Of a DNA stretch of 21,694 nucleotides, positions 2 through 13,124 are shown piece after piece. Source of the stretch: Planctomycetota bacterium. Lineage in GTDB: Bacteria > Planctomycetota > UBA8108 > UBA1146. Location: contig JAYZBV010000023.1 in assembly GCA_036338595.1 (NCBI GenBank), positions 1 through 21,694 on the forward strand, in the 5' to 3' direction. Under the pieces are notes generated by a model, which saw only the letters and a list, made by a program, of their open reading frames with translations, searched no databases and was not told the origin of the DNA. How positions within the stretch are numbered: the stretch's first letter is position 1; each line of letters opens with the position of its first letter. The position numbers were made by a program, and so were the translations under genes.

Positions 2-754
2 GAGAGAGTCCAGTCCAATGTTTCGGATGAAGAGGTGACGGCTTCCGTCACTTCGCCGCTGTTCATCCTGATGCTTTGCTGCATGGGTCTGACGGCCACC
101 CTGGAACTGGGCCCCGGCCGCTGGATGGGTGCGATCATGGAGCCGACCTTCCAGAGTGCGATGGGGGAAGGAGCCACGACTACAGGTGCAGGGATCCTGG
201 TGCTGGTTTACGGAAGTGGTTTGATGGCGGTGCTGCGTTACTTTGCTGGCGGGTTTGTCCATCGTTTCTCGCCGACGGGGTTGCTGTTTGGTTCCGCCGT
301 TCTGGGTGGGGCCGGGCTGTTTGCCATGACTTACGCCGAGAACTTCGGTTCCATCTTCCTGACCGCCACCGTCTTCTACGCTGGTGTCTGCTTCTTCTGG
401 CCCACGATGCTCGGTTTTGTATCGGAGCAAATGCCTAAAAGTGGTGCCATGGGACTGTGCCTGATGGGCGGAGCCGGCATGCTGATCGTCGGTTATGTGG
501 CGGCACCTGCCATCGGGGCGATCCAGGAGTACTACATCAACACCTTTGCTGCCGCGAACCCGGCAGCGGCGGCCGATGCGGCGACCGCTTACGCTGGAAA
601 GATGGCGTTCCGCTGGGTCGCCGCTCTGGCAATTCCGCTGGCGTTGGTCTTCTTCAACCTCAACAAGAAGTATGGTCATGTCGCGGCCGCCTCGGTCGGC
701 GGCAACCAGGAAACCACCGATAGCGAGTCGAACCAGATGCAGAGCAGTCACTGA
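2..754 (+). CDS. MFS transporter, C-terminal half (5' end outside window)
   Basis: Frame is open from base 2 (ERVQSNVSDEEVTASVTSPLF...). About 6 hydrophobic Gly/Ala-rich TM segments, with MFS-like GLMAVLRYFAGGFVHRFSP and GVCFFWPTMLGFVSEQMPKSGA. Followed by a terminator. Confidence 0.85.
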   Translation, partial: ERVQSNVSDEEVTASVTSPLFILMLCCMGLTATLELGPGRWMGAIMEPTFQSAMGEGATTTGAGILVLVYGSGLMAVLRYFAGGFVHRFSPTGLLFGSAVLGGAGLFAMTYAENFGSIFLTATVFYAGVCFFWPTMLGFVSEQMPKSGAMGLCLMGGAGMLIVGYVAAPAIGAIQEYYINTFAAANPAAAADAATAYAGKMAFRWVAALAIPLALVFFNLNKKYGHVAAASVGGNQETTDSESNQMQSSH

Positions 755-780: not shown

Positions 781-812
781 ACGGCCCCGGGGTTTCCTCG
801 GGGCCGTTTTTT
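781..812 (+). terminator. Rho-independent terminator
   Basis: ACGGCCCCGGGG-TTT-CCTCGGGGCCGT hairpin followed by a T run, starting 27 nt after the MFS stop. Confidence 0.85.
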
Positions 813-881
813 CAGGGATCGGTGGCAATGATGGGAACGGCGCGTGGGCTGGTATCGTCACACCTGTGGAGGAAGCCTATC

Positions 882-1793
882 ATGAACCTATGGAGGCCCT
901 TGCTGATCGCCCTGTCCCTCTCCTCGAGTTTTCTGGTCGCCCAGGAGGCTTCTCCGGAGCAATTCAAGTTCTCGTTGATGGGAAAGCCACTGCCGGAGTT
1001 GAAACTCGAGGAGGGCGATCGCTGGTTCCACGCCACCAAGGATCTATCTCTCGCTGCATCGCCTCTCACTGTACTGGGGCGCGGCAAGCCGCTGCTGGTC
1101 GCCTATACGATCCCTGGCTGAGAGAGTTGTGCTCCGGCATTGCCCAGCCTGGTCAGGTGGCAACAAGAAGTGGGACCCGAGTTCTTATCGTTGATGACCG
1201 TCTTCAGTTACTCGTCCAAGCAGCCAGAACTGGTCCAGAAATACATCGAAAAGAACCAGGTGACTTTCCCCATCCTGTCGGAGCAGGCCATCAACCTGGA
1301 GCGTCACGGAGTGAAGGGTTTTCCAGCGGCCTTCTTCCTCGATACCACAGGCAAGGTGATCTGGCAGGGGATCCTGCCCCGTGCCTCCGAGTCGAATGAC
1401 TATCAGCGCCCCTGGCTCGACGGGCTGTTGCGTCAGGCAGGAGTCGAACCGCCGCCGATCCCCATCCGCTGGCTCGATTTTGACGAGGGAGTCGAGGAAT
1501 CGGAGTGGACCTCGGAGACTCGACTGATCTTCGTCGAGGCAAATAAATGTGATCAGTCGGCGCGGATCGAGCGCTTGCTGACACAAGATGAAGAGATCTC
1601 AGGCCTGCTCAACGATTTCATCCGGGTCAAGATCGATGGTCGAGCTCAGCTGGATATCGTCAAGAAGTACGGAGCCAGCTGGCCCGGAGATCTGCTCATC
1701 ATCGATGCCAGCGACCAGGTGCTCTATCGATTCTGGGACCACTACAAGGACATCCCTGCGCTCAAGAAGGCGCTTTACGACCATGCCAACTGA
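882..1793 (+). CDS. Exported selenoprotein: TlpA/ResA-like redoxin domain (UESC; TGA 1119-1121 read as Sec80) plus a second thioredoxin-like domain (CDQS)
   Basis: RBS GGAGGA 868-873 and ATG 882, then a signal peptide. Track ORFs 495..1121 and 1140..1793 are in the same frame, and read-through gives GKPLLVAYTIPG-U-ESCAPALPSLVRWQQE, the Trx CxxC position. Redoxin features follow (VTFPILSE, GVKGFPAAFFLDTTGKVIW). SECIS-like hairpin at 1140-1163. Confidence 0.85.
1140..1163 (+). promoter_or_regulatory. Putative bacterial SECIS element
   Basis: TTGCC(1140-44)/GGCAA(1159-63) lower stem, small bulge, GCCT/AGGT upper stem, apical loop GGTC (1151-54), with 29 nt between the UGA and the loop. Confidence 0.65.
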
Positions 1794-1808: not shown

Positions 1809-3395
1809 CTAGGGGCAGGCAGCGCTGGTGGTCGGGCAGTCGAGAGTGTTGCCGAGCGGGTCGGCTCCGCAGGTCGGGTAGGGAGCATCCGGAGGGCTAG
1901 AACCGGGCACAAAGAGTGCATTCAACCCGTAGACCATGTCTGCGATGTTGAAGCTGCCATCGTCGTTGATATCGCAACTCTCGATGCAATCGGGAGTCAC
2001 CCCTCCCGGCACGAACAGCGCATTGAGCCCGAACACGATGTCCGCAACATTGAAACTGCCGTCCTCGTTGCCATCACCGCGGACGAATCGAATCACCGAT
2101 CCAGACGAAGCGTCGTGATAGATCAGGGAATAGGGGGGGACCCCCGGATTCTCGCGATGCTGGTAGGTGATATCGAGGCCGAAGGATGTGTTGTTGAAGG
2201 CGGGATACAGCGTGCCTCGGATGGTCGGATAGATGTAGGCGTGCTGGCCGAGTGTGGTCGGTTGTAGCTGCTCGACGAACTCGAACTCGGGGGATGTGTC
2301 GATTTTTTGTGCCAGCACCAGTGCGCCTTCGTTGGCGAGGTCCCGGTACACGGCATGGACGGTGCCCGAAGTCTCGTCACAGCCGATATTGAAGATCTTG
2401 TAACTGGCGATGCCAGTGAACTGGTCGCTACTGGCGTCGAACAGAGATGTCTCGTCACTCCAGCCATTGATCTCATCCCACTTGCGGTAGCGGAAACTCC
2501 ACAGCGGCGAGGCGGAGGCGGCGTCGACGACATAGGCACAGTGGACACTGCCGAGCGCATCGCTCGAGAGCCACCCGAAGTAGTCATTGCTGCCGGCGGT
2601 ATCGCCGAGCACGACGGTATCCAGCTGCCAGCCGCTGGTCGGATCGTAGATGCGGTGCTCGTACAGTCCCGGTGGGATGTTGCGGTAGAAACTGCAATGG
2701 ATCCGTCCGCTGCCATCGACCGCCAGACGCGTGTTCTGGGCACTGGCCGAGGGACTGAAGGCCCCCATGTCGGTGAAGGAATCATCGGCAGCGTAGGGTT
2801 GATCACTTCGTAGCAGGTGCTCGACCCAGCTGGAGGGGTGGTGCCCCGAGATCCATACCGTGTTGTTGCCATCGATGACGATGTCCATCGCCGAGGTACG
2901 GGCATTGAGTGGGGCACCAGTGATGGTGCTGATCTCGATGATGTCGGACCGGTCGCCGGTGGCGGGATCGAAGCGGCGGTAAAACTGCCGGAAGTACGAC
3001 GGGTAGGTGTACCGACCCCATAGTACATGCAGGATTCCCTGGTCGTCGATGGCCACCGAGCACTGGCTGGCGGGATCCGGATCGAACAGACCACTGTCGT
3101 CGTCGTTGAGATTGGGCGGCTGGGTAGACCAGGTGGCGCCTCCATCGGAGGAACTCTGGACAATCAGCGTCATCTCGTCGGCGGCATTTCGTTCCAGCGA
3201 GACACAGTGAAGCACGCCATCGCCATCACGAACCATGTTGTGTGAGGTATTCGATCCCGACGATGCCATCTCGTCGCTGTGCAGGATCACCTGAGCCGAG
3301 GCTGTCACGCTGCAGCAGAGCAGCAGCATCGATGCAAGAATGTTTACGATGGCAGCCTTGGGTTGCTGATAATGGTCCATTCGCTCTCTTCTCAT
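1809..3395 (-). CDS. Secreted beta-propeller (BNR/Asp-box) protein with C-terminal dockerin-like domain
   Basis: Signal peptide ending ..SVTASAQ and Asp-box SSDGGATW. Repeated blade motifs: VAIDDQGILHVLW, IVIDGNNTVW, LAVDGSGRIHCSF, SSDALGSVHCAY, GCDETSGTVHAVY. Tail FVRGDGNEDG..DINDDG..CGADP..CP. The ATG overlaps the upstream stop (TGATG); the ATG near 3380 is an alternative start. Confidence 0.8.
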   Translation of the reverse strand: MRRERMDHYQQPKAAIVNILASMLLLCCSVTASAQVILHSDEMASSGSNTSHNMVRDGDGVLHCVSLERNAADEMTLIVQSSSDGGATWSTQPPNLNDDDSGLFDPDPASQCSVAIDDQGILHVLWGRYTYPSYFRQFYRRFDPATGDRSDIIEISTITGAPLNARTSAMDIVIDGNNTVWISGHHPSSWVEHLLRSDQPYAADDSFTDMGAFSPSASAQNTRLAVDGSGRIHCSFYRNIPPGLYEHRIYDPTSGWQLDTVVLGDTAGSNDYFGWLSSDALGSVHCAYVVDAASASPLWSFRYRKWDEINGWSDETSLFDASSDQFTGIASYKIFNIGCDETSGTVHAVYRDLANEGALVLAQKIDTSPEFEFVEQLQPTTLGQHAYIYPTIRGTLYPAFNNTSFGLDITYQHRENPGVPPYSLIYHDASSGSVIRFVRGDGNEDGSFNVADIVFGLNALFVPGGVTPDCIESCDINDDGSFNIADMVYGLNALFVPGSSPPDAPYPTCGADPLGNTLDCPTTSAACP

Positions 3396-5788
3396 CAGGG
3401 ACAGGCCAGATACAGCGCGCAGTCGAACGCGTCATCGGTCGGATCCTCGCCACAATCAAGCGCACCCGGAGGCGGCGGGTTCCCCGACCCGGGGACAAAG
3501 AGCGCATTGAGTAGAAACACCGCATCGGCAACATTGCTGCCGCCGTCGTCGTTGACATCTGAACTGTCGAAGCAATCCGGCTGTGGTGAACCGGGTACGA
3601 ACAAGGCATTGAGCAGGCGGATCGCATCGGCGATGTTGACGCCGCCATCGCCGTTGACATCGCCACGACGGAAGATCTCCGGTGGCGGTCCGCTACTGGC
3701 TCCCAGCGCCAGCAGGTAGAGTCCCATCAGGGTCTCCTGATCACCGCCGTAGCCGCCGAACTCCCACGATTGAGCGATCACCTCGCCAAATGGATCGTCG
3801 GTCTCGTAGTAGTTTCCGGTGCTGTATCCGATGCCTGACTGGAGCCAGATCGATCCGCTCGAGATGCCCGCAGCATCGGGTGTCAGGGGATCCGCAGAGA
3901 CCAACTGGTCGGTCCAGTCGAGTCCAACCTGGTCCTGATTGTAGACAGCGTCCATGCCGGTCAGATCGAGCACGGAGTAGGAACCGCCGATCATCTCCTG
4001 AAAGGAGTCATCGCCGTCCACGATGGGACTGGCGATGCCGTCAAAATCTGCGAGTGCGGTCTGGCCACAGAATCCCCACACATCGCCACCTTCGATGTAG
4101 ACATCGATGCCATTGGCGATCAGGTCAGCCAGTAACTGCCCCTCTGCCGCGCTCAGGCAGTGATAATCGGGGTAGGTGCCGGTGGCGACCCAGACTCGTT
4201 CGAGTGAAGGTGTATTGAGCAGGCAGTCGCAACTGAGGATATCCGGCATCACCGCCGGGGCGAGACCGTTGAGCACCAGCGCCTCGGCGATGGCGAACAC
4301 CGAATCGATCTGTCCACCGCTTCCTTCCGCTGCCCAGATCACATCGACGGCGTTGACCAGGGCCCAGATGCTGTCGCTGTCGATGACGCAGCAAGGTGTG
4401 ACGGCATCATCCCAGCATCTCAAACTGTACTGGTAGGATGCGGCTCCACCAGGCAGCACATCGGTCCACTGCTGATCACTTCCCGGCAAGGTTGCGGCGA
4501 GCGATCCATCGCGATACACGTCGATGCTGGTGTAGAGGTTTCCGTTGAGATCCCAGCTGAGGGTGACCTCGCTGCCGTTGGTCGCGGTAGCGAAATTCAG
4601 TGGCGGGGTCAGTTGACAGGGGGGACCGCTTCTGTGGTGGATGGACCACCCATCTAGATCGCCAAACTCTGCACCGGCGTAGTCGGCCACGGTCAGACGC
4701 CAGTCACCATCCATCGGAAATCCCGCAAGGTCTGCGAGCACACCCGGACCCTGAGGTTGCATGTGGATGTAGAGTGGGATCTGGTCCTCGTCGAAGGGGA
4801 TTCCCTGATCATCGAAGACGGTGTGTATGTGATTCACATCACTGGGAGATCCTGCGATGTACTGCTTCAGGGTCACCATGGTGGCGGACGGGTGCATGAT
4901 GTCGATCCCGACTTCACGTGTCCATGTGTGAGTTATGTGCACCTCGATATCGACATCCTGGATCAGGTAGTTGTCGGTGATGTTGATGACCGAGGTCACG
5001 CCAAGAGGAGCGCTGTTGGGAATCGGCAGCGGGGTGTCTGTACTGCTGTAGATGTCAAACCCGTGCGAGAGTTGCTCGGTGTCAGTGAAATCAAAGCAAG
5101 CTCCGTCGGAGACCACGATCATGTAATTGTAGAGTCCCTGGCAAATCCCGGCGTCGGTCCAGCTGGTCGCTGCTGGGTCAGCAACATCCTGGTAGTAGGC
5201 ACCACCTCGCCAGATCTGAAATGTATCGGTGTAGGGGCCATTGTTGGTGAACTCCAGCGTGATATCCGGTCCCACGGATGTGGCGACCACCGAGTCTGGG
5301 GCGGTGACCCCGCATGGCTCCAGTTCGACAACGCCGTAGGTGCTGACATTATTCGTGCCTTCGTTGATGTCGTTCCACAGAAATGGATCGGCTTCGAGGG
5401 TGTGGCCCATGTCCTCATTGTTTGAGTTATTGGGTTCACCGGCGTTCCAGTCGGTGTACACGACAGGTTCGCCGTTGGTCCACTCGAACACACCTTCCAC
5501 TGCGATGTCATTGAGACCCAACCACAGGCGACGACCGGTGCCACCAAACACACTGAAGTTCTCGTGGATGAATTCCATCTCCAGTTGATCGCCCACCGCA
5601 ACGAGGTTTCCGCCCCAACTGCTGGCAAGGTTCTCGGCGGTGGTCCAGTCACTCGCCTCGAGTAGCAGGTAGTGGTGATCGTCGAGGGGGCTGGAGATGC
5701 TGGTCAAGATGCCTGGATCCTGAGCCTGTATAGGAGTGGTCCAGAGCAATAGCAACAGCGACGGAAGAAGATATGGACGACGGGACAC
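3395..5788 (-). CDS. Secreted modular protein: C-type lectin + FN3/Ig-like + proprotein-convertase P domain + FN3-like + unknown domain + dockerin-like tail
   Basis: GTG 5788 follows RBS GAGGAGGT; signal peptide. CTL motifs LWLGLND..EGVFEWTNG..W..GEPNN and WND. P-domain motifs DVDIEVHITHTW and GDWRLTVAD..GDLDGWSI. Tail FRRGDVNGDG. Confidence 0.85.
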   Translation of the reverse strand: MSRRPYLLPSLLLLLWTTPIQAQDPGILTSISSPLDDHHYLLLEASDWTTAENLASSWGGNLVAVGDQLEMEFIHENFSVFGGTGRRLWLGLNDIAVEGVFEWTNGEPVVYTDWNAGEPNNSNNEDMGHTLEADPFLWNDINEGTNNVSTYGVVELEPCGVTAPDSVVATSVGPDITLEFTNNGPYTDTFQIWRGGAYYQDVADPAATSWTDAGICQGLYNYMIVVSDGACFDFTDTEQLSHGFDIYSSTDTPLPIPNSAPLGVTSVINITDNYLIQDVDIEVHITHTWTREVGIDIMHPSATMVTLKQYIAGSPSDVNHIHTVFDDQGIPFDEDQIPLYIHMQPQGPGVLADLAGFPMDGDWRLTVADYAGAEFGDLDGWSIHHRSGPPCQLTPPLNFATATNGSEVTLSWDLNGNLYTSIDVYRDGSLAATLPGSDQQWTDVLPGGAASYQYSLRCWDDAVTPCCVIDSDSIWALVNAVDVIWAAEGSGGQIDSVFAIAEALVLNGLAPAVMPDILSCDCLLNTPSLERVWVATGTYPDYHCLSAAEGQLLADLIANGIDVYIEGGDVWGFCGQTALADFDGIASPIVDGDDSFQEMIGGSYSVLDLTGMDAVYNQDQVGLDWTDQLVSADPLTPDAAGISSGSIWLQSGIGYSTGNYYETDDPFGEVIAQSWEFGGYGGDQETLMGLYLLALGASSGPPPEIFRRGDVNGDGGVNIADAIRLLNALFVPGSPQPDCFDSSDVNDDGGSNVADAVFLLNALFVPGSGNPPPPGALDCGEDPTDDAFDCALYLACP

Positions 5789-5906
5789 AACACCTCCTCG
5801 GTGATCTGAGATGGAAGGATCGAAGATCAGAGCCATCGACTATTTTCCCCTGCAAGTGCCAGGATACAAGTGTCGAGTCAGGCTACTGAGAGACCGAGAA
5901 GGGCAA

Positions 5907-6485
5907 TTATGCCTGTTTCTTGGTCTTTGGCCGGGGGAATCGTTTCAGTTGTATCGGTTCCCAGCGCGTGGACCCGTCTTGCGAACCCATCTGTACCTTG
6001 ATTTCAAGGTCGTCTCCATCGCGAGTGAAGGTCAAACCCCTGAAGAGGATGCCATCCTCGCTCATCGACTCGAAGGGGAAGCGCACCGCGCCCTCCTTCT
6101 CCTCCCAGGACACGAACTCCTTGGAGAAGTGTTTCACCTTGAGCGAAAAGCCATCGTCATCCTCACCGATCACAAGGATCTCGTAGAAGACCACCTCATC
6201 GCCCTGTACCAGTCGGAAAGTGCCCACCATCGTACCTGCCAGCGGATGACTCCAGATCTCCTCGCAGGTGCCACCGAAACCCTCACCTCTCCACTGACCC
6301 GCGAGCCAGGCGAAGTCTTCGATCTTGGTCTTGGCTGGTAATGGACTGGTGTCGGGATCAGCCTGCGGCAGTGTGTGGGTGCCGAGTACAAACAACAGCG
6401 GCAGAGTGAGAAGCAGAAGCTGCAGAAGAGGATTCTTCGCCCGGGTGCAGATGAGAGTGTGGATGCGATGTTTCAGCGAATTCAT
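5907..6485 (-). CDS. DUF6265-like exported beta-barrel protein
   Basis: ATG 6485 with GGAGG RBS and a hydrophobic N-terminus. FAWLAGQWRGEGFGG..EEIWSHP..GTMVGTFRLV...FYE...LKVKHF matches the DUF6265 pattern as I recall it. Confidence 0.75.
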   Translation of the reverse strand: MNSLKHRIHTLICTRAKNPLLQLLLLTLPLLFVLGTHTLPQADPDTSPLPAKTKIEDFAWLAGQWRGEGFGGTCEEIWSHPLAGTMVGTFRLVQGDEVVFYEILVIGEDDDGFSLKVKHFSKEFVSWEEKEGAVRFPFESMSEDGILFRGLTFTRDGDDLEIKVQMGSQDGSTRWEPIQLKRFPRPKTKKQA

Positions 6486-6774
6486 GAAACCTCCAGCGGC
6501 TAGAGAATCGAATCTGGACAAGCGATAGCACTGGATCATATCTGCATTGCGATGAACAGGACACTCGTGTCGAGAAGCCATCGCCTGGCATCGTTTCGAG
6601 CTTGCCGCAATCGACAGGCAAGGATGGACACGCAGGGAAGCGGCGAGGGCGAGTGATCTGGGCAACAGGCGCACCAGGAAGAGCCATCAAGAGCGGCAAT
6701 ACAGGGGAGAGCAGGGTGACACTGGAAAGCCGCTGCAGCGGCTCGACGTGCTCTCGGTCGGGTCAAGCCCCTCG

Positions 6775-6822
6775 ATGGCAGCGGCCCCTCTTCCAGGAAT
6801 CGGGAAGAGGGGCCGTCGCCAT
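6775..6822 (-). terminator. Strong 3' stem-loop (terminator or mRNA-stabilising hairpin)
   Basis: Perfect 13-bp stem CGGCCCCTCTTCC(6782-94)/GGAAGAGGGGCCG(6803-15), extended by ATGGC/GCCAT. It lies just after the stop at 6830 and has no U tract. Confidence 0.6.
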
Positions 6823-6829
6823 ACTCGCA

Positions 6830-9800
6830 TCAGGGGCAACTGGTGAAGGTGGCACAGTCGAGCACGGAGCCCGCTGGATCCTGACCGCAGGTAGGGAAGG
6901 GGTCATCGGGTACCAGTCCACCTGAAAATAGATACGAGAGTAAGAAGATGGCGTCTGCAATGTCGATCATGTCATCGTTGTTGGCGTCGGCAGAGGCTTC
7001 GCAAGCAACAGCGCCACCGTCGAACAAGTAGTCAAGACTGGATACCGCATCGCTGATGTCATGCATCCCGTCAGTATTGACATCGCCACGCACCCAATCC
7101 TGAACAAAGCACTCATCCGGTTCTCCGTCACCGTTATTGTCGGTGCTAGTACCGTTTGCGATGTCGCAGGAATCAGGAATCGCATTGCCATTGCAGTCGT
7201 CAGCAGTCCCCTCAGCAACATCGCAGACATCGAGCGTTCCGCTCGTATCGCAATCGCTGGAAGGATCATCATTGATCTGACAGACATCGAGTTGACCGTT
7301 GAGATCACAGTCAATTGCTCCAGCGATGAGATCACAGGAGTCGTCTTGCCCGTTGCCATCGCAATCAGAACCCGCTGTCTGGTCCACATCGCAATCGTTG
7401 GGAATGCCATCTCCGTCGATATCGTCATCGCAATCATCGATGGTGCCATCGGCATCGGTGTCGGGCTCACAGGAATCAGGGATCGTATCCCGGTCACAAT
7501 CGGCGGCTCCGGCGTCGACATCGCAGATGTCTGGAATTCCATTCGCGTTGCAATCCGCTACGGAACCATCGCCAGTAGAGCACTCATCGGGGATTCCATC
7601 GATATCGCAATCAACACTGGTTCCGTTTGCGATGTCCTCTGCATCCGGGATTCCGTTGGTGTTGCAATCCTCAACTCCTGAACAATCGACTTCCTCGATA
7701 CGGAAATCATCGATAGCAGCCTCGATAACCGAACCGCCTCCCAGATCGCTTGCAATGAAGCGCACCTGGACGCTACTAGAAAGCAACACGAAGTCAGAGA
7801 CGAGGAAACTGTGTTCGATCCAGCCTCCAGAGGTTCCGGCACCGGCAGGTCCGATCGTCTCTACATCCACCCACGATGAACCGTCATCAGAGATTTCTAC
7901 TTCAAAGATGTCCGCATTGATCGTAGCTCCAATCGAAGCTCCCGTATCGTTGGAATACCAGCGGAAGTAACTGATCTCTGGATGGGAAGAACCGGACAGG
8001 TCCATCACGAATGAATAGAGTGTCGTGGATCCTCCATCGACATCATTCTCACCGAGACTTCCACCGACACTTCCCTGACCGGTGAACCAGCACTGGCTAC
8101 CGGCCGCGGTGTTGTCATCTTCTGGCTGAGCCGCTGTCCCGAGTGGATCTGCACGAACCCAGTTACCGGTGGTTGCATTGTTGGGGCTTGCCACGGCCCA
8201 ACCTGCAGACTGTTCGAAATCGGTGTCCTCGATATTGACTCCGAAGGCACTCAATCCCGGTGCCGGTCCGGCTTCGGGGTAAGAAACCAGTTGCCCGGAA
8301 GAACTCTGAGCCTCGATCCACCAGCCGAATTCACTGTCACAGGAAACGGGCGGGAAAGTCATCTCGTAATTGACACCACCGAGGAAGCTCAGCGCAATCG
8401 ACTCGATACCGGTACCCGTATCGACCATGAGCAGCTCGGTTCCTGCCTGAACGCTCGAACCAGCAATGGGGGTAATGGTGACATCGAAGGAATCGCCACC
8501 GAGCGGGTTGAAGATCGTTGGATCTCCCCCGGGAACTGCAATGATCAGAGCAGCGGTCACGAAGACATTGCAGTTGACCGGGCCGGAGGGCACACCGGCT
8601 TGAGTCCCATTGACTGTGTAAGTATGCGCACCCGGGGCAGGACTTGTATCGGTCCAGGATGTAGAAGAACCGGCGATGGTCGCAACCATGGAGCCGTCAC
8701 GAGTGATTTCGATGGCGTCGTAGACTTCGCCATTGGTCCAACCCAGATCGACCTGCTCCCCTACCTGAGCGCACGAAAGATCCGAAACGCCCGGGAGAAA
8801 ATCACCACTCGGTGCCATGACGGGGAAAGTGACCGAATCAGGCTGACCGGCGACCGGCTTGAACAGTCCGAGCGTGGCGGTGTTCGGATCGGGGGGTGCA
8901 TTACAGGTGAAGTAGAAGTTGTACATCGTCGACCAGCGAAGTGCGTTGGCATCCGGATCTTCGGCATAGGAATCGGTCGACCAGGTGATTCCCACTCCCG
9001 GATTTTCGGTGACTTGCCAGTCGATTCCGGAATGTGGCTCACCACTGTGCCAGGTGATGTCATGGAAACCATGACTGAGGATGGTGGCACCGCCAGGAAA
9101 AGGCACCATGAAACTGCGGGCGGAACGGTCCGAATACATGTTGTAGACCGCATACTCGTAGTTCCAGGTACCATCACCATTGGCGGTCACATCGTAACCT
9201 GCGATGAACAGCCCCTCGTTCGGTACCTGGACATCGACGAGGGTGACGGTCGGTTGGTTGTCCTGCCACGCCTGAATTCCAGGCTCCATCATCTGCGTGC
9301 CCCCGACAAAACTGAGGTTGTGCGACCCGGTCTGGGAGACGTTGACACGGCGATAGGAGGCGTTGTTGGCTTGATTTCCGAAGGTTGCATCATCCTGAGC
9401 GACGTACTGCCCACTGACAAAGTAAAGGGCTCCCGGAAAGTTTGCGGAGAGAAGATCGGATTCCTTGACCTGCATGCGCCGACCGATGTTTCCCTGGCCA
9501 GAGGGAACAGGAGGTGCCGAATAAGGAAAAGGGAATACTCCGGTCCAGGCATCCACCTGTGACCGAGGTCCAAGGTTGCCCTGATTGCCATTGAGTCCAG
9601 CAGAATATGGATCGGCACAGCCAGGGGTGAGGTAGCTGAGACAACCTCCTCCACCGTTGCAACCAGAGCAGAGGCCCGTATTCTGCAGCGCGCAGAAGCC
9701 ATGCTTGAGCCACGACGAACCGATCTGGGTAAAACGTCCGTCATGCAATCGGAACATATCCTGGGCGATCACGGGATGCTGGTTGTTAGTGTCGATCCAC

Positions 9801-10015
9801 GACAGATTCGCATTACCTATATTGCACGAGGTTGTAGCAACGGAGTAAGCGTAGATGACTTCTCCATTGACGGTGTTGGAGCCGTATGAATTGGTATTTG
9901 GCAAGTCACCGACGATCACATCGGGTCCCTGTGCTCCCAGATGAACGGAAAAGCCCAGGACCATCGAAAGAGCAACGACAAGATATGCGGATCGCGGAAC
10001 GTATGAAATTTGCAT
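6830..10015 (-). CDS. Large secreted modular protein: lysyl-oxidase-like N-terminal domain, beta-sandwich, FN3-like, MAM/jelly-roll-like domain, Ca-binding DCNxNGxxD repeats, dockerin-like tail
   Basis: RBS AGGAGGA before ATG 10015; signal peptide. The N-terminal ~370 aa are paralogous to the next gene. About 9 Asp/Cys repeats. Tail WVRGDVNTDG...CGQDP...CP. Confidence 0.85.
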   Translation of the reverse strand: MQISYVPRSAYLVVALSMVLGFSVHLGAQGPDVIVGDLPNTNSYGSNTVNGEVIYAYSVATTSCNIGNANLSWIDTNNQHPVIAQDMFRLHDGRFTQIGSSWLKHGFCALQNTGLCSGCNGGGGCLSYLTPGCADPYSAGLNGNQGNLGPRSQVDAWTGVFPFPYSAPPVPSGQGNIGRRMQVKESDLLSANFPGALYFVSGQYVAQDDATFGNQANNASYRRVNVSQTGSHNLSFVGGTQMMEPGIQAWQDNQPTVTLVDVQVPNEGLFIAGYDVTANGDGTWNYEYAVYNMYSDRSARSFMVPFPGGATILSHGFHDITWHSGEPHSGIDWQVTENPGVGITWSTDSYAEDPDANALRWSTMYNFYFTCNAPPDPNTATLGLFKPVAGQPDSVTFPVMAPSGDFLPGVSDLSCAQVGEQVDLGWTNGEVYDAIEITRDGSMVATIAGSSTSWTDTSPAPGAHTYTVNGTQAGVPSGPVNCNVFVTAALIIAVPGGDPTIFNPLGGDSFDVTITPIAGSSVQAGTELLMVDTGTGIESIALSFLGGVNYEMTFPPVSCDSEFGWWIEAQSSSGQLVSYPEAGPAPGLSAFGVNIEDTDFEQSAGWAVASPNNATTGNWVRADPLGTAAQPEDDNTAAGSQCWFTGQGSVGGSLGENDVDGGSTTLYSFVMDLSGSSHPEISYFRWYSNDTGASIGATINADIFEVEISDDGSSWVDVETIGPAGAGTSGGWIEHSFLVSDFVLLSSSVQVRFIASDLGGGSVIEAAIDDFRIEEVDCSGVEDCNTNGIPDAEDIANGTSVDCDIDGIPDECSTGDGSVADCNANGIPDICDVDAGAADCDRDTIPDSCEPDTDADGTIDDCDDDIDGDGIPNDCDVDQTAGSDCDGNGQDDSCDLIAGAIDCDLNGQLDVCQINDDPSSDCDTSGTLDVCDVAEGTADDCNGNAIPDSCDIANGTSTDNNGDGEPDECFVQDWVRGDVNTDGMHDISDAVSSLDYLFDGGAVACEASADANNDDMIDIADAIFLLSYLFSGGLVPDDPFPTCGQDPAGSVLDCATFTSCP

Positions 10016-10193
10016 CTACTTCCTCCTGGATAGGCGACATGCCTATCGATTGCCATCCACCAACCCAATTACGATATGGCGAACTTGTGGTCACAGAACC
10101 CGGTGAAACTTCCCGTTGATGCGGATCACCCGACCTCCGGAATCACCGGAAGCGCTGCTTCATGCATCCTGGCCACTGTATCTGGCTACTTCA

Positions 10194-12614
10194 TCAGGGG
10201 CAACTATTGAAGGAGGCACAACCGAGTCCGCCGGGCACATCAGGCCCACAGGCAGGGAACGGCGCCGCCGGATCGGGTCCGGAAGCAAACAGATAACCGA
10301 GCAGGTACACGACATCGGAGATGTCGACCTGGAGATCGCCGTTGTTGTCGAGCGCTGCGAGGCAACTGACGCTGGCTCCTCCGAACTGATATCCCAGTGA
10401 ACTCACCGCATCGCTGATGTCGTGGCTGCCGTCGTTGTTGGTGTCGCCGCGCACATAGGTGGTGGGTCCGCCGCCAGTGCATTCATCCGGGACTCCATCT
10501 CCATCGTTGTCGGTACTGGTTCCTGATGAGATGTCGCACTCGTCGAGGACTCCGTTCGCGTTGCAATCTCCGGCACTGGCGATTTCACAGTCATCATGGA
10601 CTCCGTTGCCGTTGCAATCGGGCATACCTGCGCCGCTGATGGAAACATCCATTCCCCAGTTCAACAGCGATCCAGAGTCTCCACCAAGGTTGTCGATGAT
10701 GGTCAAGGTCCAGTCGCCGATCGCATTTTGATTGTCGAAGGCGGAGAGGGGTGAGGATGGTGCGGTTGTGCCGGCGCCACCATCGTCATCGTAGACGGTG
10801 TTGATGTCATCGGAACTACTGCCTCCCTGGGCGTGAAGGACCACATTGGTCGCCAGGGGATTGCTCAGTGAGATGGTGAGATCACCGATGAAGGTGTGCG
10901 TCAGATTCAAGAGCACGTCGACATCATCCACGGCTCCGAACTGATCGACAGCGATGATCCTCACCACGGGAGGAAGGTTGTCGGCGATGGGAGCGGGTGG
11001 GTTGACGATGTCCTCGTAGGTGAAGATTCCCGCTGCTTCACAGAGATCGAGCACGCCGTTGGCATCGCAATCAAGATCGGGATTGGCATCGATCTGGCAA
11101 CTGTCGAGGACGCTGTTGAAATCGCAGTCAGGTTCTGTTCCCTGGGAGATCTCACAGCTGTCGAGCACCCCATCGAAATCGCAGTCCGCGGCTCCTGAAG
11201 CGATCTGGCAGGTGTCAGGAACCAGGTCCCCGTCACAGTCGAGGGCGCCATTGATCAACTCACAGGCGTCTGCGATTCCATCTGCGTTGCAGTCCTCCTG
11301 GCACTCATCGAGCAGCCCGTTGCCATCGCAATCGGAAGCGCCGTTGGCGATCTCATCGGCATCGGGGATGCCGTTGTTGTTGCAGTCCAGATTGCCAACC
11401 ATCGGTGCCAGCGTTGGCACCAGCAAGGTGTCGCCATTTCCCGGCTGGAAGAGGCCAAGGGTCGCATTGGCAGCGACGGGTGGGGATGTCGTGACGAAGC
11501 GGAAGTTGTACATCGTTCCCCAGTGCAAGGCGTTCGCATCCGGATTCTGGGACAGCGTCTGTGTTTCCCAGCTGATGGCTCCGCCTGCAGTCGAGTTGGT
11601 CCAGTCTGTACCATCGTAGACCTCGGTACTGTGGTACTCGACATCATGAAACCCGATGCTGCTGGCAATCACTCCGAGTAACGGCAGTGAAAAACTCCTC
11701 ACCGAGCGTGTCGAGTCCATGTTGTACAGTGCGTACTCGTACTGCCATTGGTTGGCGCTCTGCTGCGTCACCTTGTAGCCGAGGATCAGCAAACCATCGT
11801 CGCCGTCGGGAATATCGACCAGCGTCACGGTCGGATCACTGTCCTGCCACGCCTGGATTCCAGGCTGCTGGCGCTGGGTCGACCCGAGGAAGTTGATGGC
11901 GTGATTCGAACTGTTCGCAGACACCGAAACCTGGCGGTAACTGGTGTTGTTGTGGTGATTGCCAGCTGCCGCGTCGTCGGGAGTGATGTAATGGCCCTCA
12001 ACGAAGTACAGCGCTCCGCTATTGAGGGAAGGATTCAGGTCGTCGCCATGGACCCGCAAGCGTCGCCAGGTCAGGTCACTGTTACCCGGATCGAGGATCT
12101 GGGGATAGATGAAGCCACCGTGCGCCGGATCGATCACCTCCGAGCGGGCTCCCAGACTGCCCTGAGAACCGTTGAGACTGGCGCCGTAGGGATCGGAGCA
12201 ACCGACGCCCAGACGCGAACCGGTTCCAGAAGATGTGCAGCCGCAGCCACAGGTGTTTCCCTGCAGGGCGGTGAAGCCGTGCTTGAGCCAGCTCATGCCG
12301 ATCTGTTCAAAGGTGCCACCTCTGAGCCGAAACATGTTCTGGCCGATCACCGGGTGTTGGTTGGTGCTGGCGATCCAGTCCAGTTCTGCAGTGCCGATGT
12401 TGCAGGAAGTCGTGCCGACCGAATAGGCGTAGTAGCCGCCGGCACTGCCGTAGTTCTGGGTCCCTGTCAATTCTCCGACGATGACATCCGCGCCGGTACC
12501 ACCGAGACCACCCCCCGGGTTGCACTGGGCAGCGAGCGACATCGACGAAAATACGATGACGGTCGTGCAAAGGATGATTCGAAAACTGCGGATTTGCTGA
12601 TGATACAGAGACAT
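10194..12614 (-). CDS. Paralogous secreted modular protein: lysyl-oxidase-like N-terminal domain, DCNxNG repeats interrupted by a P domain, dockerin-like tail
   Basis: ATG 12614 follows AAAGGGGA; signal peptide MSLYHQQIRSFRIILCTTVIVFSSMSLAAQ. The track's longer start (13115) runs through the tRNA and is rejected. Confidence 0.85.
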   Translation of the reverse strand: MSLYHQQIRSFRIILCTTVIVFSSMSLAAQCNPGGGLGGTGADVIVGELTGTQNYGSAGGYYAYSVGTTSCNIGTAELDWIASTNQHPVIGQNMFRLRGGTFEQIGMSWLKHGFTALQGNTCGCGCTSSGTGSRLGVGCSDPYGASLNGSQGSLGARSEVIDPAHGGFIYPQILDPGNSDLTWRRLRVHGDDLNPSLNSGALYFVEGHYITPDDAAAGNHHNNTSYRQVSVSANSSNHAINFLGSTQRQQPGIQAWQDSDPTVTLVDIPDGDDGLLILGYKVTQQSANQWQYEYALYNMDSTRSVRSFSLPLLGVIASSIGFHDVEYHSTEVYDGTDWTNSTAGGAISWETQTLSQNPDANALHWGTMYNFRFVTTSPPVAANATLGLFQPGNGDTLLVPTLAPMVGNLDCNNNGIPDADEIANGASDCDGNGLLDECQEDCNADGIADACELINGALDCDGDLVPDTCQIASGAADCDFDGVLDSCEISQGTEPDCDFNSVLDSCQIDANPDLDCDANGVLDLCEAAGIFTYEDIVNPPAPIADNLPPVVRIIAVDQFGAVDDVDVLLNLTHTFIGDLTISLSNPLATNVVLHAQGGSSSDDINTVYDDDGGAGTTAPSSPLSAFDNQNAIGDWTLTIIDNLGGDSGSLLNWGMDVSISGAGMPDCNGNGVHDDCEIASAGDCNANGVLDECDISSGTSTDNDGDGVPDECTGGGPTTYVRGDTNNDGSHDISDAVSSLGYQFGGASVSCLAALDNNGDLQVDISDVVYLLGYLFASGPDPAAPFPACGPDVPGGLGCASFNSCP

Positions 12615-12897
12615 GAGTCCCCTTTCGAAATGTTGCGGAGCTGAGCACCTGTTCGAACGGGCATTGGTAACCGGGCGATCGTAGCCATGCTTCAACACGA
12701 GCATCGATTCACATCCTGTCGATTCGCTTTGCTGTCGGGCGAGGTGGTACAGGTCCTGAGAACTCAAGACGAAGCAGCCATCACGCTCGAAAAGCGGCAC
12801 CACCTGGATTGTAAAGGCCAACGGAGTCAGGGCGAGGGGGGACTGGGCGCATCGGGCACCAATTCCTGATGTCGATGGTGCCGATCGGTGCAGGAAT

Positions 12898-12927
12898 GGC
12901 CCTGTGGACAGGCGAGTCCACAGGGCC
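12898..12927 (-). terminator. Hairpin downstream of tRNA-Thr
   Basis: Perfect 12-bp stem GGCCCTGTGGAC/GTCCACAGGGCC with a 6-nt loop, 10 nt past the tRNA CCA. The U tract is weak. Confidence 0.65.
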
Positions 12928-12937
12928 TGATGTTTAC

Positions 12938-13013
12938 TGGAGCTGGCGACGGGAGTCGAACCCATGACCTCAGCTTTACGAAAGCTGTGCTCTACCAACT
13001 GAGCTACGCCAGC
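12938..13013 (-). tRNA. tRNA-Thr (anticodon CGT)
   Basis: GCTGGCGTAGCTCAGTTGGTAGAGCACAGCTTTCGTAAAGCTGAGGTCATGGGTTCGACTCCCGTCGCCAGCTCCA: 76 nt, 7-bp acceptor stem, D-loop GG, anticodon loop TTCGTAA, GTTCGA T-loop and encoded CCA. Confidence 0.97.
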
Positions 13014-13044
13014 CCGATTTGGTGTCGATGGGGCCGGAGGAAGA

Positions 13045-13073
13045 AGGATAGCGACATTGTCACCGGGCGGCAA
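13045..13073 (-). promoter_or_regulatory. sigma70-type promoter of tRNA-Thr
   Basis: TTGCCG-N17-TATCCT, ending 31 nt upstream of the mature tRNA 5' end. Confidence 0.6.
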
Positions 13074-13076
13074 TCT

Positions 13077-13098
13077 CCCCTCCCTTTTCAGGGAGGAG
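13077..13098 (-). terminator. Stem-loop after xerC
   Basis: Minus strand CTCCTCCCT-GAAA-AGGGAGGGG (GNRA loop) between the xerC stop and the tRNA promoter; no U tract. Confidence 0.4.
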
Positions 13099-13124
13099 GG
13101 GTGCGGCACGCTCAAGGGCGCTCG

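Follow-up and report, generated by a model that had tools for sequence, protein, structure and literature searches.

We asked whether a reading frame of a Planctomycetota bacterium that is interrupted by a single TGA encodes one selenocysteine (Sec)-containing protein or two small genes. The window, i.e., the whole stretch of DNA analysed here, comprises 21,694 nucleotides and corresponds to contig C23 in a genome of 2.9 Mb (88% complete, 7% contaminated); those of the best-matching sequencing runs that bear a habitat label are seawater or marine metagenomes. The coding sequence (882..1793, forward strand) runs from ATG 882-884 to TGA 1791-1793 and is open save for one internal TGA at 1119-1121. 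Read as Sec, this TGA gives a product of 303 aa with the motif U80-E-S-C83 in the context AYTIPG-U-ESCAPALP. The first-pass annotation of the window had proposed this single frame and had suspected that annotators would split it, and both claims were confirmed. Translation table 11 splits the frame into two open reading frames (ORFs), the second being 217 aa from TTG 1140, and the six close public protein entries are all downstream fragments (207–223 aa), one of which is named 'thioredoxin family protein' by NCBI (MDE0959678.1). All six lack the signal peptide and the active site, i.e., the joined frame corrects a systematic annotation error. Beyond these fragments, the protein databases gave two distant Cys proteins.

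A Shine–Dalgarno-like GGAGG (868..872, forward strand) precedes ATG 882 with a 9-nt spacer, and a similar purine-rich stretch lies 5' of the start in those orthologs whose sequence was displayed. A sigma-70-like match (855-883) extends over the start codon and was discounted as a chance event. Further upstream, a weak terminator-like hairpin with a T-run (781..813, forward strand; stem 791-805) ends an MFS-like gene; two such hairpins were found compared with 0.8 in shuffles, a weak excess. The hairpin suggests a separate transcript for the selenoprotein gene, and because it separates this gene from the MFS-like gene, the neighbourhood gives no operon clue. The MFS-like gene lies upstream in 11/14 orthologous loci and a convergent dockerin-like gene lies downstream in 14/14, and no linkage to dsbD or to cytochrome-c maturation genes was found at the locus. 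On the reverse strand of the window, four large genes with secreted-looking products (528, 813, 1061, and 973 aa as called) follow one another at positions 1809-13115; they share a similar C-terminal dockerin-like, Cys-containing module. That these dockerin-like genes encode clients of an envelope disulfide system is speculation.

Decoding of the internal TGA

The codon at residue 80 was TGA, and never TAA or TAG, in 14/14 full-length orthologs (43–100% identity). DNA runs from different studies were aligned to positions 700-2000; three of the four covered the TGA with no difference listed there, and the fourth had no coverage. The conservation and the run coverage together indicate that the internal TGA is neither a chance event nor an assembly error, the latter being a doubt that the first-pass annotation had raised. 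Among the RNA runs, contigs of relatives spanned the TGA in two of four; such contigs cannot show transcription and are not evidence of expression. One RNA contig of run X20 corresponded exactly to 998-1143; its end, which has an A-rich tail, falls 22 nt past the UGA in the basal part of the SECIS stem, and this tail likely reflects library tailing. In addition, an in-frame insertion of 24 nt is present in three public assemblies at 926-938, near the end of the signal peptide, where the linker varies by 0–28 aa among orthologs.

The same annotation had predicted a conserved TGA or Cys in homologs, conservation on both sides of the codon without decay of the downstream frame, and Sec machinery in the genome, and each prediction was borne out. 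Compared with the window sequence, dN was lower than dS in every measurable comparison: 13/13 orthologs for aa 26-79, 12/12 measurable for aa 96-190, and 13/13 for aa 191-303. Cys occupied the Sec80 position in 12 homologous domains as well as in StoA and DipZ. The genome encodes selA (E 1e-125), selB (E 7e-117), and selD (E 3e-104), each above the family cut-off, and a tRNA-Sec (67.9 bits, above the family cut-off) whose anticodon was TCA according to ARAGORN. The selA, tRNA-Sec, and selD genes are clustered on contig C72 and selB lies on C108; selD contains an in-frame TGA of its own followed by a GGUC-loop hairpin. Across the order, selA was present in 33/34 genomes; the exception, G011 (82% complete), carries the two-domain selenoprotein gene and has selB. 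TGA is the commonest ordinary stop of the genome (574/902 long ORFs); therefore, a recoded genome is excluded, and genetic codes 4 and 25 (TGA as Trp or Gly) were rejected.

We then considered the signal for recoding. A bacterial SECIS-like hairpin lies at 1140..1163 (forward strand; −9.0 kcal/mol), with a lower stem of 5 bp (1140-1144/1159-1163), a 2-nt bulge, an upper stem of 4 bp (1147-1150/1155-1158), and a GGUC loop at 1151-1154 that starts 29 nt after the UGA and resembles the apical loop of fdhF. The hairpin agrees in every respect with the consensus bSECIS given in PMC13188914, i.e., a loop of 3–9 nt with G in its first two positions, a spacing of 16–37 nt, a minimum free energy (MFE) of at most −7.5, and an upper stem of 4–16 bp. 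It shares with the E. coli fdhF-type bSECIS its location within the ORF, the 4-nt loop starting with GG, and a spacing of 29 and MFE of −9.0 that fit the consensus. It differs in that one 11-nt core is common to many Planctomycetota families and fixes the peptide L-V-R-W/L, and in that, in six relatives, a single hairpin follows two UGAs, at distances of 29 and 20 nt.

The codons that form the hairpin showed marked constraint. L90 (CTG), V91 (GTC), and R92 (AGG) were identical in 14/14 orthologs and account for three of the seven single-codon columns among 41 invariant columns with 4–6-fold degeneracy, while only 18 of the 286 LVR tripeptides in the long ORFs of the genome use CTG GTC AGG. Codons 89-94 form the 6-codon window with the lowest synonymous change in the gene (0.055, median 0.49). 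A second low-synonymous stretch lies in domain 2 at codons 242-251 (~1605-1634), where window 242-247 reached 0.072 against the same median. Among 47 homologous domains, the 11-nt core was present 3' of the motif in 26/35 Sec forms and 0/12 Cys forms; the count of 26/35 is inflated, as the rows are kin and were chosen with a profile containing LVRW. Nine Sec-form domains lacked the 11-mer; five of these had no stable hairpin in the stretch folded, and two (L088 and L089) folded a different G-loop hairpin at a similar location. Wider windows around the hairpin were no more stable than shuffles (z 0.13–1.1), and the stem showed no two-sided compensatory change, i.e., three pairs were invariant and the fourth alternated between A-U and G-U. 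A genome-wide scan for TGA followed by a GGUC hairpin gave 929 matches with no clear spacing peak; therefore, it cannot enumerate selenoproteins and was rejected as a count. In another TlpA-like Sec clade of the order (L060, L063, L066, L068, and L026), the motif is W-x-x-x-U-G-P-C without the GGUC core, and no stable hairpin was found 18–50 nt from the UGA start; the SECIS of this clade may lie nearer to the codon or belong to another class.

By every testable feature, the gene is a bona fide bSECIS-type selenoprotein gene, and we regard the decoding of UGA 1119 as Sec as close to certain. That the TGA is a true stop, whether between two small genes, in a pseudogene, or through an assembly error, or that another route reads it as Trp or Cys, is nearly excluded by the comparative data and seems very improbable to us: public gene calls do begin past the TGA, and TTG or ATG stands at codon 87 in 14/14 orthologs, but codon 80 is TGA and never another stop in 14/14, TGA is the commonest normal stop of the genome, one fold spans codon 80, the downstream piece would have neither signal peptide nor active site, selection is purifying 5' and 3' of the codon, and the SECIS codons do not vary.

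The gene is narrowly distributed. Full-length matches were found in 14 of 41 relatives and 14 of the 34 genomes of the order (8/9 in its own genus, 5/6 in genus g5, and 1/1 in g4), and the two-domain form was found in 0/12 genomes that represent four further genera of its family and in 0/6 from other families. In a sample of 401 genomes of the phylum with five candidates scored in each, full-length matches occurred in one family only, the gene's own, and the other matches listed stop by profile position 192. A full-length ortholog with Cys was found neither in these 401 genomes, at the same five candidates per genome, nor in the 34 genomes of the order, nor among 1775 and 8000 scored protein candidates of 165–580 aa.

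Domain architecture and single-domain relatives

The N-terminal hydropathy predicts that the protein is exported. Residues 1-20 (882..941, forward strand) form a predicted cleavable signal peptide with a basic start, a hydrophobic core, and a putative cleavage site LVA|QE. The N-terminal hydrophobic segment was present in 14/14 orthologs (best 11-residue hydropathy 1.6–2.8), and no later 19-residue window of the orthologs exceeded 1.36. AlphaFold2, run with 12 sequences, gave a mean pLDDT of 80.5 and a pTM of 0.66, with low pLDDT over aa 1-29; the model shows two alpha/beta domains and is continuous across residue 80.

Domain 1 (~aa 28-186; 963..1439, forward strand) has a thioredoxin (Trx) fold of the TlpA/ResA/DipZ type, with U80-E-S-C83 at the start of a helix and a cis-Pro loop whose P148 (1323-1325, forward strand) is invariant in 12/12 aligned sequences. 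The TGA (1119..1121, forward strand) had been proposed to occupy the position of the attacking Cys in the TlpA/ResA CxxC motif, and U80 indeed aligned to the first Cys of the motif in StoA, DipZ, and ResA, the top structure and sequence matches (best sequence match StoA, E 1e-9; best fold match DipZ, E 2.5e-8). Domain 1 resembles ResA, StoA, the Trx domain of DipZ, and TlpA (PDB 1su9, 3erw, and 2hyx) in fold, motif position, cis-Pro loop, and extracytoplasmic targeting, which is predicted here. However, identity to ResA, DipZ, and related fold matches is only 16–24%, and the protein differs from this group in having Sec for Cys, a cleavable-looking signal in place of an anchor, and an extra C-terminal Trx domain. 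Its motif lacks the usual preceding W-x-x-W, having YTIPG-U in place of WxxW-U.

Domain 2 (~aa 195-303; 1464..1790, forward strand) has a Thioredoxin_7-like fold and contains a single invariant Cys, Cys223 (1548-1550). The whole protein narrowly passed the PF13899 cut-off (27.2 compared with 27 bits), and domain 2 matched 2kuc at E 1.6e-4. It resembles Thioredoxin_7 (PF13899) and the putative disulfide isomerases 2kuc and 3fk8 but lacks the second Cys: none of the 14 orthologs has CxxC there, 11 having CxxS and three CxxT. Its cis-Pro position is Pro in 12/14 and Ala in 2/14. U80, C83, and C223 are the sole Sec and Cys residues of the window protein; thus, C223 would have no obvious structural partner.

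Assignment to a named family was then examined. The protein fell below the Pfam AhpC-TSA (PF00578, 21.5 bits compared with a cut-off of 26) and Redoxin (PF08534) cut-offs. Among 18950 NCBIfam models, StoA and ResA were the sole matches at E up to 0.1, both far below cut-off (26.6 vs 210 bits and 20.5 vs 170 bits, respectively), and no named selenoprotein model, e.g., VPGUxxT NF041383, WAxxUGC NF041054, or SelL-related NF040769, was matched. Against the whole model, no PDB chain scored above a TM of 0.42 by query length, i.e., none was a good match to it. As these family cut-offs fail, the protein is not filed under a named family, though by fold it resembles TlpA/ResA reductases.

According to PMC13188914 (Table 1) and PMC2398784, no class of bacterial selenoprotein is commoner than that of the thioredoxin-fold proteins with UxxC, and taken alone the gene encodes a selenoprotein of an ordinary kind. 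It shares with the Prx-like and UxxC entries of this catalogue the Trx fold, Sec for the first Cys of CxxC, a SECIS within the ORF, and UxxU variants among relatives. Of the features of the 'Prx-like thiol:disulfide oxidoreductase' row, the protein has the UxxC motif; compared by domain scores and motifs, it departs from such entries in its Pfam scores and in the YTIPG-U sequence. No row of Table 1 describes a second Trx_7-like CxxS/T domain, and the two-domain UxxC plus CxxS/T form matched none of these rows and none of the NCBIfam families checked. The literature searches, which covered few subscription papers, returned no description of this form. LVRW following UxxC was not found in the GOS sequences of the four text supplements of PMC2398784 (no HLVRW, and one SLVRW at an unrelated position). 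The two-domain form is a lineage-restricted selenoprotein architecture added to a common kind. The SECIS, the second Trx_7-like domain, the UxxU single-domain relatives, and a UxxC DsbD among ~18 candidate selenoproteins were absent from the first-pass annotation.

Six genomes (G025, G028, G161, G323, G391, and G010) encode exported-looking TlpA-like relatives with the same 11-nt core but without domain 2, in which the codon matching Cys83 (1128..1130, forward strand), the partner in UxxC, is TGA and the motif is UxxU. The loci are L057 (G028), L058/L029 (G025), L059 (G010), L083 (G161), L095 (G391), and L101 (G323); the G010 copy is interrupted by a premature TAA. In each, the GGUC loop follows the first UGA at 29 nt and the second at 20 nt, spacings that the consensus model allows, and selA is present in all six genomes. 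Two of these relatives scored above the PF00578 cut-off (53.4 and 33.9 bits). Seven database matches to the G025 protein were found (111–143 aa, covering 55–60%). UxxU in Prx-like families has been published (Table 1 of PMC13188914; PMC2398784).

In a tree of 47 rows, three UxxU forms were sister to the two-domain clade (support 99/93), and the same three were sister in a masked tree of 26 of these rows (motif and SECIS-coded residues masked; 97/95); the other three branched just outside with weaker support. Constraining all six UxxU forms together cost 6.95 log units (p-AU 0.056). Both trees therefore nest the two-domain clade among UxxU forms, but the AU test retains UxxU monophyly, and descent from a UxxU ancestor is suggestive only. 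CxxC, UxxC, and UxxU form a clean natural series within one protein clade. The imprint of the SECIS on the protein sequence is visible in this series, and two UGAs that are 9 nt apart appear to share one hairpin. This series makes tandem Sec decoding, and diselenide compared with selenenylsulfide chemistry, directly testable.

Possible role in envelope redox chemistry

On balance, we favour the view that the gene encodes a Sec-containing, predicted exported protein with two Trx folds that acts as an envelope disulfide reductase or isomerase fed by DsbD. In this scheme, SelB would bind the GGUC-loop hairpin 29 nt downstream and bring Sec-tRNA to codon 80, as in known bacterial Sec decoding, and the N-terminal signal peptide is predicted to route the chain through the Sec translocon. 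Judged from the alignment to ResA, StoA, and DipZ, Sec80 would attack a substrate disulfide or oxidised thiol, and Cys83 would resolve the intermediate to a selenenylsulfide. The DsbD of the genome, whose gamma-type domain is itself UxxC, could then re-reduce the site. Most speculatively, domain 2, with only CxxS/T, might bind the substrate or hold a mixed disulfide via Cys223, with no turnover on its own.

The genome has a single PF02683 gene for DsbD, which is cut by the edge of contig C106 and continues on C53, the two contigs sharing 141 nt at the start of C53; its pieces lie at G000:C106:1-2500 (reverse strand) and C53:1-840 (forward strand), and it is intact at L137:420-3254. The gene is intact in relatives including G004, and its best NCBIfam match was DsbD, below cut-off. 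Its C-terminal Trx domain contains U-Q-N-C, and TG(H)T-U-QNC was found in 12/12 loci checked. We take cd02953 to be the DsbD gamma domain. PMC2398784 lists a 'thiol disulfide interchange protein' (cd02953) with UxxC. VKOR was present in 9/9 genomes of the genus, i.e., an oxidising partner exists, and DsbB was present in 0/9.

The same selenoprotein might instead serve mainly as an envelope antioxidant or repair enzyme in a peroxide, sulfenic acid, or Met-sulfoxide pathway, which we consider unlikely although it is the best of the other readings. Its similarity to Pfam AhpC-TSA and Redoxin points this way, and so do two weak PDB matches (GPx8 and the MsrA/B Trx domain), the UxxC and UxxU motifs of the catalogue's 'Prx-like thiol:disulfide oxidoreductase' (PMC13188914), and the apparently exported Prx-like TxxU candidate on contig C10, which needs a reductant. 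However, the protein contains no PxxxTxxU peroxidatic motif, and its strongest matches are the disulfide reductases StoA, ResA, and DipZ.

A dedicated ResA/CcmG-type reductase of the CxxCH motifs of apocytochrome c appears distinctly less probable. ResA is among the top matches and the genome contains a PF01578 cytochrome-c assembly gene, but the selenoprotein gene is unlinked to that locus, no membrane anchor follows the signal, several other TlpA-like paralogs outscore the protein against ResA, and the two-domain form was not found in any of the 12 genomes from the family's four other genera. Slightly more doubtful still is a VKOR-coupled oxidase or PDI-like catalyst that makes disulfides for the many Cys-rich secreted proteins encoded nearby. 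The occurrence of VKOR without DsbB throughout the genus genomes fits such a role, as does the downstream gene, whose dockerin-like product is secreted and contains Cys; PDI-type foldases, too, have Trx domains in tandem, and the second CxxS domain is reminiscent of them. Nevertheless, the fold is TlpA/ResA-like and not DsbA-like, and a selenenylsulfide is generally more reducing than its disulfide counterpart.

The reductase or isomerase reading could be extended to a wider picture, which we offer as a tentative proposal that is probably wrong in at least some part. Marine planctomycetes may run a selenium redox relay in the envelope, in which a Sec-containing DsbD would feed a dozen exported selenoproteins. 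The gene studied here would then derive from a diselenide (UxxU) ancestor in which one SECIS served to recode both UGAs; its second Sec would have changed to Cys, and a CxxS domain would have been gained, in which Cys223 would provide a third redox centre. The body of the 2026 review (PMC13188914) uses neither the word 'periplasm' nor the word 'secreted'.

Other candidate selenoproteins of the genome

Candidate selenoproteins were drawn from coding-score and motif lists and from two Pfam searches. We inspected 20 TGA loci, including the two-domain gene; 14 were kept and six were dropped as chance frames or abutting genes. Together with candidates on C10, C21, and C57 and with SelD, these give a provisional 18 candidate loci, two of which are near-identical and possibly a strain duplicate; conservation was examined for the two-domain gene, DsbD, and the FG-GAP gene only. 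By eye, ~14 of the 18 are either membrane proteins or show a hydrophobic segment at the N-terminus, which suggests that this lineage places much of its selenoproteome outside the cytoplasm.

Further candidate Sec codons in the genome (G000) are at C105:2015, C34:49260, C21:281, C77:15103/20236/30010, C38:9208, C28:3132, C12:2449, C57:42867, C10:2593, C55:5377, C90:15584, and C33:5111. Their types comprise a DUF1573 protein (UGC), tandem Trx_7 (CxxC plus UxxC), several TlpA/Trx_7-like UxxC proteins, Prx-like TxxU, ArsC-like, SelW-like, and UshA-like with a cytochrome domain. The C57 candidate (341 aa, C-x6-U) matched no NCBIfam family, and the Prx-like TxxU candidate on C10 is apparently exported.

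A secreted-looking FG-GAP repeat protein is encoded at G000:C54:28425-29714 on the forward strand (L081:126-1415), with the TGA at C54:28815 in the context T-U-C...PQ. It matched no NCBIfam family, it is absent from Table 1 of PMC13188914, and no relevant paper was found. Matches to the family occurred in 52 of 301 Planctomycetota genomes, with 16 copies in G158, and 74 of the 75 matches listed contain one TGA. The TGA stood at the same position in 30/30 loci checked, each followed by a conserved hairpin, and selB was above cut-off in four of the five carriers tested.
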